Source: Escherichia phage ECO319P1
Sequence record: OP172790
Strand: one strand, 5' to 3'
Length of the DNA stretch: 64,000 nucleotides
Both the position numbers and the translations under genes were made by a program. Below, in pieces: positions 6,164 through 47,609 of the stretch. The notes beneath the pieces were generated by a model. The model ran no database searches, was not told the DNA's origin, and worked only from the letters and a program-made list of their open reading frames with translations. Position 1 is the stretch's first letter. Each line of letters begins with the position of its first letter.

Positions 6164-6383
6164 ACTGCATAACGCAACGCTGTATAAACATGACGGTGGT
6201 GCATGGCTTGAAGGTCGTATTTATAACGACACCCATACCCACGGCAATCATCCGTTCCGTGATGGTACTCCAGTCACCACAACTAATGTGAGTGATGAAG
6301 TTCTGGATGGTGGCAACACCTATATGATTACCCGCAACACGACTTATAAAATGGTCGGTGTGGTTCGTGAGGTGGAGTTATGA
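6132..6383 (+). CDS. hypothetical protein
   Basis: 83 aa ORF, start uncertain. Confidence 0.35.
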   Translation: MESPQMNHHAELHNATLYKHDGGAWLEGRIYNDTHTHGNHPFRDGTPVTTTNVSDEVLDGGNTYMITRNTTYKMVGVVREVEL

Positions 6384-7267
6384 TTAAGCTGCTGCTTAAC
6401 AATGTGGAAATGCACTTGAATCGTAAGCGTTTCCCTGATATGGCCACCGGTATTGAAATCGTTGGTCAAGTTCCTGCCCGTGTTGAAGTGGCAACTATTG
6501 ACGCCCGCTTTGATGGAGTTGCAAGCCCAAATGACATGCTCTTTGACATTGCGCAAGCGGTTGATGTGGTGCGCTCTATTAACAGTACTGCGGTTATTCG
6601 TCTGTTTATTCCGTATCTCCCATACGCAAGACAAGACCGCCGCATGACCAAGCATGACGCTTTCAGTTTGAAAGTGTTCGGTAACCTGTTGAATTCATTG
6701 AAGATTAACACAATCATGTGCTTCGATGCTCATTCAGATGTTGCCGCAGGTATCATTGATAACCTGACTGTGATTGGTCAAGACCGAATCATGGGCATCA
6801 GTGAAGTCAGTCACGCATTGACTGTCAACGACCCGCTGATTGTTGCGCCTGATATGGGTGCTGTGAAGAAGATTCACAAAGTCTGTGCGAGCCTTAACCG
6901 TGCTGATTCACCGATTGTCATGGACAAAGAGCGTGAGCCGTCAACTGGTAAGATTGGTAATCATAAGATTATCTTTGGTACTGAGCGTGTTGATGGTCGT
7001 AACTGCTTGATTGTAGACGACATTTGTGATGGTGGTCGTACATTCATTAGCGCAGCGACTGAGTTAAAAGCTGCTGGGGCTGCAACAGTTAGTCTGTATG
7101 TAACTCACGGCATCTTCTCTCAGGGCATTGACGCTCTGTTAGGTGGTGGTATTGATAAAGTATTCACCACTGACTCTTTAATCGACACTGGAACTCTGGC
7201 ATCTGAAAAGGTGCGTGTGTTTAAGTGTAACGATATTCTTTCTGCCTTTTCGATGGGACGTATCTAA
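6380..7267 (+). CDS. adps: PRPP-synthetase-family kinase; candidate ADP-ribose pyrophosphokinase (Adps-like)
   Basis: Prs motifs PYARQDRR, DAHS and PRPP-binding loop LIVDDICDGGRTF; GAGGTGGAG RBS. Confidence 0.75.
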   Translation: MIKLLLNNVEMHLNRKRFPDMATGIEIVGQVPARVEVATIDARFDGVASPNDMLFDIAQAVDVVRSINSTAVIRLFIPYLPYARQDRRMTKHDAFSLKVFGNLLNSLKINTIMCFDAHSDVAAGIIDNLTVIGQDRIMGISEVSHALTVNDPLIVAPDMGAVKKIHKVCASLNRADSPIVMDKEREPSTGKIGNHKIIFGTERVDGRNCLIVDDICDGGRTFISAATELKAAGAATVSLYVTHGIFSQGIDALLGGGIDKVFTTDSLIDTGTLASEKVRVFKCNDILSAFSMGRI

Positions 7268-8932
7268 ATGAAACTGAATCCTCTGTTTGCTGTTGATGGT
7301 TATAAGTTCTCTCATGGCCCGGCCTATCCGAAAGGCACTAACAAGCTGTATGATGTGTTCACACCTCGCAGCGATAAGTATTTCAACAGTCCGTTCTTTA
7401 AGAACTTGGACATTCGTAGCCCGCTGATTTGGGTTGGTATGCAAACCTTCATTCAGCATTGGTTAGTGGACGAGTTCAATGAGAGCTTCTTCAAAGCTGA
7501 TAAAGGTGCTGCTGTTGCCGAATTCAAGGAATTCCTTGATGCTTACTTCGGCGCAGATGCTGTATCTACAGATAACATCGCTGGTCTTCATGACCTTGGT
7601 TATCTGCCACTTGTAATCAAGACGATTCCTGAAGGTTGCAATGTGGATATGAAGGTTGCGACCTGCACCTTCGTCAACACCCATGACGACTTCGCATGGC
7701 TGGTTGGCTATCTCGAAACTTTGGTCAGTGCTGAACTGTGGCCTGCTGCAACTGCTGCCACTATCGCAATGAACTACAAGGCAATCGGCACCTATTGGGC
7801 TGAACTGACTTGTGAAACCAAAGACCACCTGCTGTGGCAATTCCACGACTTCAGTGCTCGTGGTGACATGGGCATGTGGGCTTGTAGCTTAGTTGGCCTC
7901 GGTCACTTAGCATCTTTCCGTGGTACTGACTCGGTGTTCGCACTGAAACGTACAATGACGCACTATGCTGTGCCTAATGTTCCTGCGACTGGCTACCTGT
8001 ACGGTGGTTCTGTTCCGGCAACTGAGCACTCAGTAATGTGCATGGGAGAAAAAGTAAGTGAACTCGAAACGTTCTCGCGGCTCATTCAAGAAGTATATCC
8101 AACGGGAATCGTCAGTATTGTCTCGGACACATGGGATTACTGGAAGGTTATCACCGAATTCCTCCCGACCCTTGCTGACACGATTAATGAACGTGACGGC
8201 AAAGTGGTCATTCGTCCAGATTCTGGTGACCCTATTGATATCATTTGTGGACGCCTATTTACTGACCTGAATGGTTGTGAACATCTGGGTCATGTACAGA
8301 CTGTGCTCATGTCAAAACCGGGTGCTGTTGGTCTGTACAAAGGAACCTATTATGAGTTCAAACGTGCAAGCGAAGAACTTGTAGTTGTGCCTGAGCATGT
8401 AGTTGCTGGCTCAATCGAAATGATGTGGCGTACCTTTGGTGGCACCATCAATAAGAAAGGCTTCAAGGTTCTGAATCCGAAGATTGGCCTGATTTATGGT
8501 GATTCAATCACTATGGAACGTGCCGAAGAAATCTTTGCTCGCCTCGCCGCGAAGGATTTCGCATCTTCAAACGTTGTGCTGGGCATCGGTTCATACACTT
8601 ATCAGTATGTGACCCGTGACACCTTCGGCTTCGCCATGAAAGCAACTTATGGTGAAGTAGACGGCGTTGGTCGTGAAATCTTTAAAGACCCTGCGACTGA
8701 CGATGGCACTAAGAAGTCCGCCAAAGGTCTGCTGAAACACGCATTCATTGATGGCGTATGGACTCAGACAGACATGGCATCTGCTCGTGAAGAACAAGAC
8801 ACTGAGCTGTTGACAGTGTTCCGCGACGGTGTTGCATATCCACATTGCGACATTGAAGTTGTTCGTCAGCGTGTAGACGCTCTGGTCGATGGTCTGGTTT
8901 ACTATCGCATGAAGAAGGAAGGACTGATTTAA
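7268..8932 (+). CDS. namat: Nampt-family phosphoribosyltransferase; candidate nicotinamide ADP-ribose transferase (Namat-like)
   Basis: N-terminus LFAVDGYKFSHG typical of nicotinamide phosphoribosyltransferases; 554 aa; immediately follows the Prs-like gene. Confidence 0.75.
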   Translation: MKLNPLFAVDGYKFSHGPAYPKGTNKLYDVFTPRSDKYFNSPFFKNLDIRSPLIWVGMQTFIQHWLVDEFNESFFKADKGAAVAEFKEFLDAYFGADAVSTDNIAGLHDLGYLPLVIKTIPEGCNVDMKVATCTFVNTHDDFAWLVGYLETLVSAELWPAATAATIAMNYKAIGTYWAELTCETKDHLLWQFHDFSARGDMGMWACSLVGLGHLASFRGTDSVFALKRTMTHYAVPNVPATGYLYGGSVPATEHSVMCMGEKVSELETFSRLIQEVYPTGIVSIVSDTWDYWKVITEFLPTLADTINERDGKVVIRPDSGDPIDIICGRLFTDLNGCEHLGHVQTVLMSKPGAVGLYKGTYYEFKRASEELVVVPEHVVAGSIEMMWRTFGGTINKKGFKVLNPKIGLIYGDSITMERAEEIFARLAAKDFASSNVVLGIGSYTYQYVTRDTFGFAMKATYGEVDGVGREIFKDPATDDGTKKSAKGLLKHAFIDGVWTQTDMASAREEQDTELLTVFRDGVAYPHCDIEVVRQRVDALVDGLVYYRMKKEGLI

Positions 8933-43738: not shown

Positions 43739-43746
43739 TCAAATAA

Positions 43747-43772
43747 GGCTGTCTTCGGACGGCCTTTCTTTT
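43747..43772 (+). terminator. intrinsic terminator (UUCG tetraloop)
   Basis: GGCTGTC-TTCG-GACGGCC then TTTCTTTT. Confidence 0.7.
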
Positions 43773-43792: not shown

Positions 43793-44881
43793 ATGAAAAA
43801 AGAGCTATTTGCTGTTGATAAGAACGACAACATTAAACATTGGACTGTCGAAACTAATGGTGCTGAGATTATTGTCTGTCATGGACGATACCAAGGCAAG
43901 ATGCAGAAGAAAGTGACAGTCTGTAAAGCTAAGAATATTGGGAGGGCGAATGAAACAACACCCGAAGACCAAGCGATTCTGGAAGCAGAAGCTAAGTACA
44001 CCAAGCAAATCGACAAGTGCTATCGGGCGACTATTGAAGAGGCAAGACGAGTCGGTCAAGTCCTTCCTATGCTCGCTCATAATTTCCTTGACCACGGGCA
44101 TCGTATTAGCTTTCCTTGCTATGTCAGTGCTAAGCTGGATGGTGTACGATGCGTTGCAACTGTGGAAGATGGTGCTGTCACACTAACAAGTCGTGGTGGT
44201 AAGGAATATCCTTGCCCAGAGGCAATTCATGATGAACTGGTTCACCTTAGTTATCTCACTGGAATTACTAAGTTTGATGGCGAGCTTTATATTCATGGTA
44301 CGAAGCTTCAACACATTGTGTCGGCTGTTAAAAAACCTAACGACTTGACTCCGAAGTTGAAGTATTGTATCTTTGACTTACCGAACACTGATAAGTGGGA
44401 AGACCGTTGGTTAAAGCTCAAAGACATTAAGAATAAATATCGTCTTGACCACATGGAAATCGTTGATTGTATCAAAGTTGAGAACAAACTCTCAGCGGAA
44501 ATGATGCTTCACAAATACATGGGTCAAGGTTACGAGGGTCTGATGCTTCGTAATCTGGATGGGAAGTATGAATACAACCATCGTTCAGCAGATTTACAGA
44601 AGTGGAAAATCATGCAAGACCTCGAAGCCAAGGTAATTAGTGTTGCAGAAGATAAGAATGGTGAGGGTGTCCTGACTTGCCATATAGCGGGTGAACCCGA
44701 TAAAATCTTCGATGTTAAAATGCGTGGGACACATGAGGAACGTCTGGTTGACAATCAGAAGAAGTTGATTGGCAAGTGGATTGTTGTTATTTATCAGGCA
44801 TTTACAGAAGCAGGGTTGCCTCAGTTCCCGGTAGGCAGCCATGTCCGTGAATGTGATGAAGAGGGGAACCCAATTGAATAA
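43793..44881 (+). CDS. ATP-dependent DNA ligase
   Basis: motif I KLDGVR; 362 aa. Confidence 0.8.
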   Translation: MKKELFAVDKNDNIKHWTVETNGAEIIVCHGRYQGKMQKKVTVCKAKNIGRANETTPEDQAILEAEAKYTKQIDKCYRATIEEARRVGQVLPMLAHNFLDHGHRISFPCYVSAKLDGVRCVATVEDGAVTLTSRGGKEYPCPEAIHDELVHLSYLTGITKFDGELYIHGTKLQHIVSAVKKPNDLTPKLKYCIFDLPNTDKWEDRWLKLKDIKNKYRLDHMEIVDCIKVENKLSAEMMLHKYMGQGYEGLMLRNLDGKYEYNHRSADLQKWKIMQDLEAKVISVAEDKNGEGVLTCHIAGEPDKIFDVKMRGTHEERLVDNQKKLIGKWIVVIYQAFTEAGLPQFPVGSHVRECDEEGNPIE

Positions 44882-45197: not shown

Positions 45198-45409
45198 TGG
45201 CTCGAAAACCACGTAAACCAAAAGTTAAACCGATTATCAATGTTTGGGACATGGATGAAGAAACGATTCAGAAGGTTATTACGCATCTGGAGAAGGATTT
45301 CCCGCTCTCAGGAATGTTAATCCGTTACAAAGCAGAGATTGGTCGTCGTAATGACGGCCTTTCCGTTGAAGATTTCTATAAAGTTAAGGAAGACGATGAA
45401 GATTTATAA
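45191..45409 (+). CDS. hypothetical protein
   Basis: 72 aa ORF. Confidence 0.35.
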   Translation: MVMARKPRKPKVKPIINVWDMDEETIQKVITHLEKDFPLSGMLIRYKAEIGRRNDGLSVEDFYKVKEDDEDL

Positions 45410-45953
45410 TGCCGGTCATATGCTTACCCGTGGTGCTCAGTTCCAACGTCAAGTTGAAAAAGATGAACTGAATAGTGTTGCTGATGATTTACAGTGGTAC
45501 GACCCGAAGGAAAATAAAGAAATCAACGATAAGGCTAATCTGGATAATAACGATGGACTCGCTGAGAAGATTGTTCGCCAAGACACAAATGCTCTGTTTT
45601 GGGCTGATACTGTGGTCATTGAGCCCCTACCTGAAGCTCTTGGAACTCATGTCGAACTCGGACAGCTCAAAGGCATGCGGGATATGGCGATTGCGATTGT
45701 TAATCTTATCAATAACGCTACCTCCGTCGATGATGCTTTTATGCAAATCGGTGCTCTCTGTGACAAACAAATAACTCGTTCTGTATACCCACACTATGAG
45801 GATATCCGCAGATTCAAAGGGGCGAATGAGTCCGAAGACCGTCGTTCTTGGGGTATCAATCAATATGTGTATGGTGTATGCCTTGACTTAACAGACGGTA
45901 AGGGTTTATACGACTGGAGCGAGGTTCTGAGGGAACTTAGCAATGAAGATTGA
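45396..45953 (+). CDS. nucleoside 2-deoxyribosyltransferase-like protein
   Basis: N-terminus MKIYNAGHM resembles the NDT-family start; AAGGA RBS 6 nt upstream of ATG 45396. Confidence 0.45.
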   Translation: MKIYNAGHMLTRGAQFQRQVEKDELNSVADDLQWYDPKENKEINDKANLDNNDGLAEKIVRQDTNALFWADTVVIEPLPEALGTHVELGQLKGMRDMAIAIVNLINNATSVDDAFMQIGALCDKQITRSVYPHYEDIRRFKGANESEDRRSWGINQYVYGVCLDLTDGKGLYDWSEVLRELSNED

Positions 45954-46347
45954 TATCTACCGCAAGAGAGAGGGGGAAAACGTCGTAGGCTTTCCTATGG
46001 CGTTTGCCAGAAAGGTTTATGAGGGTTGCCCCATTTTCCAACACCGGGATTTCTCCGAGTTTTTCTTTTCAACATCAATGACAATTCGTAATACCCTTCG
46101 TTGGGAGTACGTTGTTACAGATGATGATGGCAATGTGACGGCCTCTATGGCTGTCTACAAAGACTTTGATATGCATGTAGGCGAATGCCTTAGTGTATTG
46201 GTAGCGTTCAGCACAGACGACCACAGCTTGTTTAAAGCGTACCGTTGGTTGATGAAGCTGGCAAAAGAAGAGATGTGCCCTTTCGTAGCTTATACACGGA
46301 AGACTGGTGATTTTACAATGGATTTAGTTTACAGGAAGGTTTCATGA
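45943..46347 (+). CDS. hypothetical protein
   Basis: 134 aa ORF. Confidence 0.4.
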   Translation: MKIDIYRKREGENVVGFPMAFARKVYEGCPIFQHRDFSEFFFSTSMTIRNTLRWEYVVTDDDGNVTASMAVYKDFDMHVGECLSVLVAFSTDDHSLFKAYRWLMKLAKEEMCPFVAYTRKTGDFTMDLVYRKVS

Positions 46348-46613
46348 GCGCATTAGATACTATGGTAGGTGGTTCACATTATCAAGCTGAAGGTGGTATT
46401 CAGCCAATTCAGTTCTATCATGCAAATCCACAGCTTGACTTTCAACAGTGTAATATGATTAAATACGCATATCGACACAAAGATAAGAACGGTTTGCAGG
46501 ACTTACTGAAGGTTATTCACTATGCGCTGCTCGAAGCTGAGTTTGACTACGGTGACGACAAAGATAAGTTCGAAGCGTTTAAGGAGCAAGTACGTGGCCT
46601 CGTCAAAATCTAA
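46344..46613 (+). CDS. hypothetical phage protein
   Basis: 89 aa ORF; contains 12-mer copy 7. Confidence 0.4.
   Translation: MSALDTMVGGSHYQAEGGIQPIQFYHANPQLDFQQCNMIKYAYRHKDKNGLQDLLKVIHYALLEAEFDYGDDKDKFEAFKEQVRGLVKI
46546..46557 (+). repeat. copy 7 of 12-mer ACTACGGTGACG
   Basis: exact match, read as D-Y-G-D. Confidence 0.9.
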
Positions 46614-46772: not shown

Positions 46773-47393
46773 ATGTTAAAATTTATTTGGTCTATTATAG
46801 CCACTGTAGGTGTACTTGCTTCCTGTTACATATCTGATGCTTCTCCTATCATCACAACAGCTTCTGTCATTGGTGTCTTATTTGTTCTTGGTGTAGCTTT
46901 CAAGAATGCTTGGACAAACCTGTTAGGTGCTGCATTAACGCTGATATATGGATACCTTTCTTACAGTGCAGGTTATTATGCTAACGCACTGATAAATGTG
47001 ACAGTGCTATTCCCACTACAGTTAATAGCTTTCTGGTTCTGGAAGAAGACAGAAGGTAAGACGTTTACATTAACTGAAGATTGGAAGAAAGCAATCATAG
47101 TGTTATCTGGTATAGGTATCCTCATTTCCTGCACACTGACTAAATCCTATGGTTCACATCTTTGGCTTCATGATGGAATCTCAGCGGTATTAGTTATTGT
47201 TGCTACTTTCCTCCTGATGTTAAAAGTGAAAGAACAGTGGTATGCTTGGATTCCTTATAATGCACTTGAAGTGTTTATGTGGTTCATGGCTGCTTCTTTA
47301 AATCCTGATATGTTGGCTATCTTTGTGATGCGTAGCATCTTCTTTGCTAACTCTCTGATTGGTGCTTACGAGTGGTTCGGTAAGAAATCTTAA
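46773..47393 (+). CDS. pnuC: PnuC-like nicotinamide riboside transporter candidate
   Basis: multi-TM protein of about 206 aa with W...N..G and LINVT segments; start at ATG 46773, not the TTG inside the promoter element. Confidence 0.5.
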   Translation: MLKFIWSIIATVGVLASCYISDASPIITTASVIGVLFVLGVAFKNAWTNLLGAALTLIYGYLSYSAGYYANALINVTVLFPLQLIAFWFWKKTEGKTFTLTEDWKKAIIVLSGIGILISCTLTKSYGSHLWLHDGISAVLVIVATFLLMLKVKEQWYAWIPYNALEVFMWFMAASLNPDMLAIFVMRSIFFANSLIGAYEWFGKKS

Positions 47394-47579: not shown

Positions 47580-47583
47580 GTTA

Positions 47584-47609
47584 GGGCTGCCTTCGGGCGG
47601 CCTTTTTTC
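47584..47609 (+). terminator. intrinsic terminator (UUCG tetraloop)
   Basis: GGCTGCC-TTCG-GGCGGCC then TTTTTT. Confidence 0.75.

Follow-up and report, generated by a model that had tools for sequence, protein, structure and literature searches.

A divergent nucleoside 2'-deoxyribosyltransferase-superfamily protein encoded near a Pnu-family transporter in Escherichia phage ECO319P1

Which reaction does the enzyme-like product of a small gene of Escherichia phage ECO319P1 carry out, and on which substrate? The gene lies at 45396..45953 (+ strand) in a stretch of 64,000 nucleotides of the phage (sequence record OP172790), hereafter the window, and encodes a protein of 185 residues that the original prediction had called a nucleoside 2-deoxyribosyltransferase (NDT)-like protein. 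Based on homology and on a census of functional residues, we assign it to the NDT superfamily as a divergent member; this identification is correct, already annotated in the nearest reference genomes and therefore not new. We further consider it somewhat probable that the protein is a 2'-deoxyribosyl transfer or hydrolysis enzyme for the supply and rebalancing of DNA precursors, possibly acting on 2'-deoxynucleoside monophosphates (dNMPs). The most informative feature of the locus, overlooked so far, is the recurrent linkage of this gene with a transporter gene of Pnu or SWEET type.

Family membership was assessed by profile, sequence and structure comparisons. The window protein matched phrog_1817, 'nucleoside 2-deoxyribosyltransferase', over residues 1-183 (E = 1.8e-60), and RefSeq gives the same name to its homologues in Cronobacter phage vB_CsaP_GAP52 (GAP52), phage A24 and Aeromonas phage BUCT695. 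Pfam PF05014 scored 17.8 bits on residues 35-104, below its gathering cut-off of 28.8 bits; that score is reached by several homologues 50-60 % identical to the window protein, and many of the 503 homologues retrieved from a large protein collection have precomputed PF05014 hits. As a single sequence, the window protein gave no match in PDB sequences, NCBIfam or PADLOC. A family profile (A1) made of 45 sequences had one significant match among solved structures, PDB 7M5H (E = 1.5e-6, residues 1-122), i.e. EfPDT, the tetrameric type I purine deoxyribosyltransferase of E. faecalis (PMC12372993), and profile-profile comparison by hhalign with an alignment of the EfPDT family (A2) reached a probability of 96.3 %, with aligned columns restricted to 1-75. 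Foldseek ranked NDT and DNPH1 chains of the PDB first, with weak E-values (0.08-1), in line with an NDT-type flavodoxin-like alpha/beta fold. The resemblance to the NDT family that had been noted for the N-terminus was thereby borne out, some 90-95 of the 185 residues superposing, far above chance.

This family is small and compact, with 228 clusters at E<=0.001 in an exhaustive hidden Markov model (HMM) search of 1.84 billion representatives. It was found in 509 phage genome records, the hosts being mainly Staphylococcus (391), Vibrio (51) and Clostridium (32), with a few each for Aeromonas, Proteus and Cronobacter; the Staphylococcus phage records sampled were mostly Kayvirus-type genomes of about 140 kb. 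The NDT-like domain also occurs in many fusions (P0121-P0205). One of them, P0183 (380 residues), is the single case of a fusion with a guanylate kinase, located at its N-terminus; NDT-like proteins of Clostridium phages (e.g. L006 4782-5534) carry an extra N-terminal domain of about 65 residues, and many of the other fusions have N- or C-terminal extensions of 60-200 residues with no significant family match above cut-off. Partial NDT-like proteins from Herbiconiux daphne (P0059) and Kocuria (P0054, flagged UNVERIFIED_CONTAM) most likely reflect contamination by phage DNA.

To describe the active site, functional positions derived from the literature were mapped onto 221 full-length relatives. 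The predicted catalytic residues of the window protein are Tyr4, Asp63 and Glu87, the last being the nucleophile within GTHVELG, and together they make up the NDT-type triad (a Tyr on strand beta1, a mid-chain Asp or Asn and the Glu of G-x-x-x-E-[LI]-G). They align with Tyr5, Asp60 and Glu86 of EfPDT, whose roles are described in PMC12372993. Tyr4, Gly83 and Glu87 are invariant (221/221) and Asp63 is missing from a single relative (220/221). The beta1 Tyr has been tied to the exclusion of ribo-substrates such as signals derived from ADP-ribose, according to the passages of PMC12884076 that cite Sikowitz 2013. Pro37, present in 205 of the 221 relatives, aligns with Pro38 of EfPDT; this proline is reportedly kept in all known transferases of the family, where it excludes water, and absent from the hydrolases (PMC12884076). 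The window protein further shares the PQ(E/D)N..INDK and DT motifs with EfPDT, and a basic residue at position 12 is conserved in the family.

Six positions before the nucleophile, NDTs and purine deoxyribosyltransferases carry an Asp (LlNDT Asp92, EfPDT Asp80) which, with an Asn, holds the 5'-OH of the sugar. This Asp is absent from the window protein, which has Ala81 instead; within the family the position is occupied by Ala in 155 relatives, Asp in 19, Ser in 17 and Gly in 15 (n = 221). At the equivalent position of MilB, Ser97 binds, together with Gly99, the 5'-phosphate of hydroxymethyl-CMP (PMC4081090), and GTHVELG is nearly identical to GTHVEIG of MilB.

The C-terminal half is specific to the family. 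Residues ~95-155 comprise two long helices and a loop with the motifs P-H-Y-E-D-I-R-R and D-R-R-S-x-G-I-N-Q-Y-x-Y-G, found in the window protein as D136-I-R138 and D148-R-R-S...N155-Q-Y157-x-x-G160. For this segment no relative was detected outside the family, and the last 61 residues alone had no match among PDB sequences. Asp136 and Arg138 are each conserved in 220 of the 221 relatives, Arg149 in 183 and Arg150 in 184, the three arginines lying on the C-terminal loop ahead of the N-Q-Y-x-x-G motif. Within this motif N155 (211/221) and G160 (219/221) are well conserved, and N155-Q-Y157-x-x-G160 resembles N130-L-Y132-x-x-G of EfPDT at the motif level only, since the hhalign and HMMER alignments end before N155 and the mapping of the Asn thus rests on the motif. 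In NDTs, the Asn of the NLM/NLY motif reaches the 5' pocket of the neighbouring subunit and binds the 5'-OH. Overall, the residues are mixed as to a nucleoside or a nucleotide substrate; they lean to a 2'-deoxy compound, possibly 5'-phosphorylated. The substrate may well carry a phosphate, considering the small residue at position 81, the parallels with MilB and with the phage enzyme DmtZ (compared below), the shared GTHVE(L/I)G and the three arginines Arg138, Arg149 and Arg150.

Downstream of the NDT-like gene, the window encodes a Pnu-family (PnuC-like) membrane transporter with about six predicted transmembrane segments (46773..47393, + strand; PF04973, E = 3.4e-25), which also matched phrog_1880 and the solved PnuC structure 4QTN. 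Its start was set at the ATG that agrees with the GAP52 annotation, the open reading frame (ORF) listing beginning at TTG 46716. Two terminator-like hairpins bracket the stretch from an upstream DNA ligase gene to the transporter, NDT-like and Pnu genes included: one at the upstream end (43745..43766, + strand; GC-rich stem of 9 bp and T tail) and a near-identical one at the downstream end, just 3' of the transporter gene (47583..47604, + strand). The two elements, AAGGCTGTCTTCGGACGGCCTT and AGGGCTGCCTTCGGGCGGCCTT, are GC-rich with T-rich tails and look like a reused terminator.

The same association recurs across phages. In every Grimontviridae-type locus examined, i.e. those of GAP52, BUCT695, Proteus phage 3H10_20 and the metagenomic loci L022 and L028-L031, a PF04973 gene is located at most 1.5 kb downstream of the NDT-like gene. 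Enzyme and transporter genes lie side by side in 3H10_20, L029 and L030, and likewise in Vibrio T5-like Demerecviridae (Ceto, Cilsick) and in Pantoea phage TacPo2, and Clostridium phages encode a three-helix PQ-loop semiSWEET (PF04193, E = 8e-10) two genes downstream of theirs. Full-length relatives of the window transporter (38-94 % identity) come from exactly those phages that carry the NDT-like gene, and its identity to other phage Pnu proteins is about 27-30 %. A survey of 185,579 bacterial and archaeal species genomes for this phage Pnu subfamily retrieved only three tiny scaffolds of one assembly. From the gene order in several unrelated phage lineages, we infer that the transporter is a functional partner of the enzyme; no paper mentioning both 'PnuC' and 'deoxyribosyltransferase' was found.

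Some further observations concern these transporters. The three scaffolds just mentioned (L034-L036, Herbiconiux daphne, 0.6-2 kb) are most likely phage contamination. In Proteus phage 3H10_20, the product annotated as 'nicotinate ribosyltransferase' (L004 5569-6192) is a Pnu-family transporter (PF04973, E = 1.4e-24). In Staphylococcus Kayvirus genomes, the gene next to the NDT-like gene encodes a membrane protein of 192 residues with 5-6 transmembrane segments; a relationship with Pnu or SWEET proteins was not established, its signals being weak (PQ-loop E = 4.4e-4, below cut-off; semiSWEET in the PDB, E = 0.32) and hhalign comparison with the Pnu profile revealing no similarity.

Other neighbours of NDT-like genes belong to DNA-precursor metabolism. 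A T4 gp1-like dNMP kinase gene lies directly downstream in LAh_9 and L022, a thymidine kinase gene is found nearby in L022 and L031, and genes for ribonucleotide reductase, dUTPase and ThyA/DHFR occur among the neighbours. At Bacillus SPbeta-like loci, a gene for PolIII-alpha precedes the NDT-like gene, which is followed by a gene for a phrog_8902 protein, for dUTPase or for ThyA/DHFR. Together with the guanylate kinase fusion, these genes fit the nucleotide pool remodelling that had been suggested for the window protein.

The homology, the fold, the conserved catalytic triad and the gene linkage are the observations from which we propose a role in DNA-precursor salvage. In this proposal, the N-glycosidic bond of a 2'-deoxyribosyl compound would be cleaved via a covalent deoxyribosyl-Glu87 intermediate, Glu87 being positioned by Tyr4 and departure of the base being assisted by Asp63, and the sugar would then be handed over to water or, in a base swap, to a second base. 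The donor may well be a dNMP, with its 5'-phosphate, instead of a free deoxynucleoside; the enzyme would then be a natural mechanistic relative of phage DmtZ and of Rcl/DNPH1. It would form part of a small salvage module, whose transcription unit here also includes the gene of a Pnu-family importer. What the enzyme does, its preference for deoxy compounds, whether its substrate is phosphorylated and whether it is functionally coupled to the transporter are read from sequence and gene order. Exchange or removal of bases on deoxynucleosides or nucleotides had been put forward originally; this reaction class holds, and the substrate and the outcome are not settled by the sequence.

Several points weigh against a salvage enzyme of this kind. 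Pnu transporters move uncharged nucleosides, not nucleotides, and a dNMP-acting enzyme is therefore not an obvious direct partner of the importer; moreover, the window contains no nucleoside kinase that could trap an imported deoxynucleoside, its sole Walker-A ORF being a primase/helicase. N155 appears to retain the 5'-OH-binding Asn, which argues against an Rcl-type phosphate pocket, and the NDT fold covers about half of the protein, with the weak Foldseek E-values given above. The linkage with a transporter could be simply inherited synteny within Grimontviridae, and no linked transporter was found in LAh_9 or in Bacillus SPbeta-like loci (none within 6 kb); the IMG/VR scan yielded 13 loci only, mostly of this SPbeta-like type without transporter. 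Literature searches returned no biochemical data for any member of this subfamily. Finally, phage proteins assigned to the Pfam NDT family from unmodified contigs have been reported without nucleoside transglycosylation (preprint 10.1101/2025.10.22.683976), and the NDT annotation should therefore be taken to denote family membership and not a proven activity.

Four other explanations were weighed against DNA-precursor salvage by a possibly dNMP-acting enzyme. A classical NDT would exchange bases between free deoxynucleosides (EfPDT-like, purine to purine) that are imported by Pnu or derived from host DNA, the products being phosphorylated by host or phage kinases. The closest solved relative is indeed a type I purine deoxyribosyltransferase that shares the PQ(E/D)N..INDK and DT motifs, the transferase proline is present, the N-x-Y-x-x-G motif is like that at N130-L-Y132 of EfPDT, a nucleoside-type importer and a thymidine kinase are linked, and 19 of the 221 relatives do have the Asp at the 5'-OH position. 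However, this Asp is replaced by Ala in the window protein and in 70 % of the family, the family-specific C-terminal half brings extra invariant arginines, and the kinases encoded next to it or fused with the domain have monophosphates as substrates, so that we regard a classical NDT as possible but rather doubtful. A pure N-glycosidase acting on dNMPs or modified dNMPs, of the Rcl/DNPH1 or MilB type, would serve pool sanitation or depletion of host nucleotides without any sugar transfer. The small residue at the phosphate-pocket position and the GTHVE(L/I)G shared with MilB are consistent with such an enzyme, which is nonetheless quite unlikely: the proline reported absent from hydrolases is conserved here, Asn155 appears to be kept where Rcl has Ser, a hydrolase beside or fused to a kinase for the same nucleotide class would be futile, and the GAP52 annotation lists no base-modification pathway (PurZ, hydroxymethylase).

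The Pnu transporter also raises the question of a link to NAD+. In such a scheme, Pnu would import nicotinamide riboside and the NDT-like enzyme, replacing NadR, would cleave the ribosyl-nicotinamide bond or exchange its base; nicotinamide could, for example, be released for a NARP1-like Adps/Namat pair of the phage. The window transporter matches the solved nicotinamide riboside transporter PnuC (E = 1.6e-14). Just upstream of pnuC, Yersinia phage phiR2-01 has a NadR-like gene and Vibrio phage Ceto an NDT-like gene, which looks like a swap of partners in a single cassette, and there is experimental evidence for NARP3 (PnuC + NadR; PMC13464706). A tblastn search of the window with a phage NadR-like protein found no NadR-like gene (best E = 2.3); the window does encode, side by side, a Prs-like protein (6380-7267, + strand; PF13793/PF00156/PF14572, ribose-phosphate pyrophosphokinase in GAP52) and a Nampt-like protein (7268-8932, + strand; PF04095, PF18127, nicotinamide phosphoribosyltransferase in GAP52). 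This adjacency corresponds to the NARP1 arrangement (10.1101/2024.02.11.579819), and the phage probably counters NAD-depleting defences. Nampt or Namat homologues exist in most NDT-bearing lineages as well (GAP52-like, V. harveyi T5-like, LAh_9, Kayvirus, SPbetaL1). Such genes are nevertheless widespread in large lytic phages (2044 records), they lie 37 kb away here, and nicotinamide requires no dedicated riboside route. Furthermore, the nearest relatives with a solved structure are deoxyribosyltransferases, the NDT-like domain is fused to, or encoded beside, (d)NMP kinases and not NAD enzymes, and the search upstream of the transporter revealed no NAD+-II (pnuC-motif) or other riboswitch. The beta1 Tyr, a feature tied to 2'-deoxy specificity (PMC12884076), is found in 221 of 221 relatives, and Clostridium phage CS28 has the NDT-like gene and a semiSWEET without annotated NAD gene; on account of this invariant Tyr and of the Clostridium pair, we rank an NAD-linked role below salvage and consider it unlikely. 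A last explanation would be an anti-defence protein directed against nucleotide immune signals, which it would bind or degrade, or a nucleic-acid enzyme in view of the ligase, exonuclease and endonuclease neighbours. The pair does have a YAcAr/SLOG gene as a neighbour in BUCT695 and in Proteus phages, and in Grimontviridae and Kayvirus a gene for a DNA or RNA ligase precedes the NDT-like gene. By contrast, PADLOC gave no hit, the full NDT triad is conserved and not the TIR residues, the ribose-disfavouring tyrosine is present and no defence-related neighbour is kept across lineages, all of which makes this explanation highly improbable. The processing of signalling nucleotides, which the original prediction had also envisaged, found no support of any kind: the PADLOC search and the inspection of neighbours for defence or anti-defence genes were both negative and the invariant beta1 Tyr disfavours ribo-substrates, and this role was rejected.

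The SLOG-type protein (PF10686) beside the NDT-like and Pnu genes is encoded at L002 8949-9311 in Aeromonas phage BUCT695 and at L004 6192-6596 in Proteus phage 3H10_20; it is annotated 'DNA recombination-mediator protein A' and is absent from the window. SLOG domains are nucleotide-binding.

The gene model of the NDT-like protein was validated on the sequence. The intact frame of 185 codons runs from an ATG at 45396 to a TGA at 45951-45953, exactly as originally predicted, and is preceded by a Shine-Dalgarno-like AAGGAAG (45386..45392, + strand). A longer, TTG-initiated frame (45339) was rejected because homologues begin with MKIY or MNIY. The start of the gene overlaps the stop of the preceding ORF by 14 nt and its stop overlaps the start of the next ORF (45943) by 11 nt, typical of the usual packing of phage genes. 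Over the 1.6 kb around the gene, DNA identity is 87.9 % to GAP52 and 87.4 % to phage A24, these relatives belonging to Grimontviridae, Crifsvirus. Within the gene, 36 of the 48 nucleotide differences from GAP52 fall at third codon positions, and 33 of the differing codons are synonymous and 11 non-synonymous. The gene is therefore expressed and constrained, and these counts indicate that it is under purifying selection. As it shares 87-88 % of its nucleotides with GAP52 and A24 in the compared region, the phage probably represents a new Crifsvirus species. The GC content of the window is 44.5 %.

Within the terminator-bounded unit, the gene order is DNA ligase, two small ORFs, NDT-like gene, phrog_3986, DUF3310 and Pnu transporter, followed by endonuclease I. 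The first gene encodes an ATP-dependent DNA ligase (43793..44881, + strand; identified by Pfam on homologous loci). Directly after the NDT-like gene comes a coding sequence for a protein of 134 residues (45943..46347, + strand) of the functionally unassigned family phrog_3986, for which no Pfam hit was obtained; it occupies the same place in GAP52, BUCT695 and the metagenomic locus L028, and its product might belong to the module as a third member. Between it and the transporter, a DUF3310 protein of 89 residues is encoded (46344..46613, + strand; PF11753, E = 2.1e-10), in the same order as in L028. This protein has no P-loop, and RefSeq calls its homologues in GAP52, A24 and BUCT695 'deoxynucleoside monophosphate kinase' or 'nucleotide kinase'; these names are probably propagated misannotations.

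The identification itself changes nothing, the gene being already named NDT in the nearest reference genomes, and we regard the identity of the enzyme as ordinary and the transporter pairing and the substrate question as mildly interesting. Members of this subfamily are encoded by about 500 phage genomes, and their name implies an activity that is so far putative; the residue deviation described here touches the very distinction between nucleosides and nucleotides. A natural enzyme that exchanges the base of deoxynucleotides would be of use in the preparation of nucleotide analogues, DmtZ being so far the one reported. The recurring pairing with Pnu or semiSWEET proteins suggests that some phages bring their own route of precursor uptake. 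On a more speculative note, the NDT-like and Pnu/SWEET genes might form an undescribed 'import-and-convert' DNA-precursor cassette, with the enzyme acting as a (phospho)deoxyribosyltransferase with a new Arg-rich C-terminal module; we regard this as possible but rather doubtful. If true, the cassette would be analogous to NARP3 and would swap bases on deoxyribose (5-phosphate), e.g. turning guanine into adenine deoxynucleotides, and a phage of 44.5 % GC could thereby draw on precursors supplied by the medium or by a host of higher GC content.

How does the window protein compare with known systems? Compared with EfPDT (7M5H), it has Ala81 where EfPDT has Asp80 at the 5'-OH position, and it is longer (185 residues vs 159), its segment ~95-155 being extended, helical or loop, and rich in invariant Asp and Arg. 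With Rcl/DNPH1 and MilB/BlsM, it shares the fold, the catalytic Glu and, at the position six residues ahead of this nucleophile, an amino acid other than Asp, in addition to GTHVE(L/I)G with MilB. These enzymes differ from it by Ser at the positions of Ala81 and of the C-terminal Asn and by the lack of the transferase proline, whereas the window family keeps Tyr, Pro and, judged by the motif, Asn; in the window protein the Asp position alone is replaced (Ala81) and Pro37 and apparently Asn155 are retained, a pattern distinct from the Rcl/MilB signature. MilB further differs at the beta1 aromatic residue and is ribo-specific, according to the same passages of PMC12884076 citing Sikowitz 2013.

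Regarding gene organization, NARP3 combines a PnuC-like nicotinamide riboside importer with a NadR-like enzyme and rebuilds NAD+ in T5-like phages (PMC13464706); we confirmed the NadR-PnuC arrangement in Yersinia phage phiR2-01. The likeness lies in an enzyme gene just upstream of a Pnu-family transporter gene, in the same Demerecviridae neighbourhood; in the window both genes share one terminator-bounded unit and in other phages they are directly adjacent. The enzyme partner differs, being NDT-like and not NadR-like. Deoxynucleoside salvage of the Lactobacillus type also associates an NDT-family enzyme, a Pnu-family transporter and kinases, as described in PMC7749635, in which the Pnu subfamily PnuN is predicted to carry deoxynucleosides (citing Rodionov and Gelfand 2005). 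The cargo of PnuN is a prediction and the window transporter is likened to PnuN by description only; by analogy, this prediction would fit a role in salvage.

Finally, DmtZ of Gordonia phage Ghobes and Arthrobacter phage Wayne hydrolyses dAMP and moves the deoxyribose 5-phosphate to 2-aminoadenine (PMC12884076). It differs from the window protein in its length (~145 residues), in the Asn of its triad, in its C-terminal half and in its context, i.e. with DutZ/PurZ0 in A-to-Z phages. No significant direct sequence match between the two proteins was obtained; no PurZ or adenylosuccinate-synthetase-like gene is listed in the complete GAP52 annotation and no PurZ pathway was seen in the window, no dedicated search having been made. 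By its published description, DmtZ is nevertheless likewise a phage enzyme of the NDT superfamily that has the transferase proline and, where the 5'-OH-binding Asp would be, residues that are small and uncharged. Pro37 and Ala81 would fit a DmtZ-type 5' pocket, but Asn155 appears to be retained. These features suggest that DmtZ would be the closest functional analogy for the window protein.

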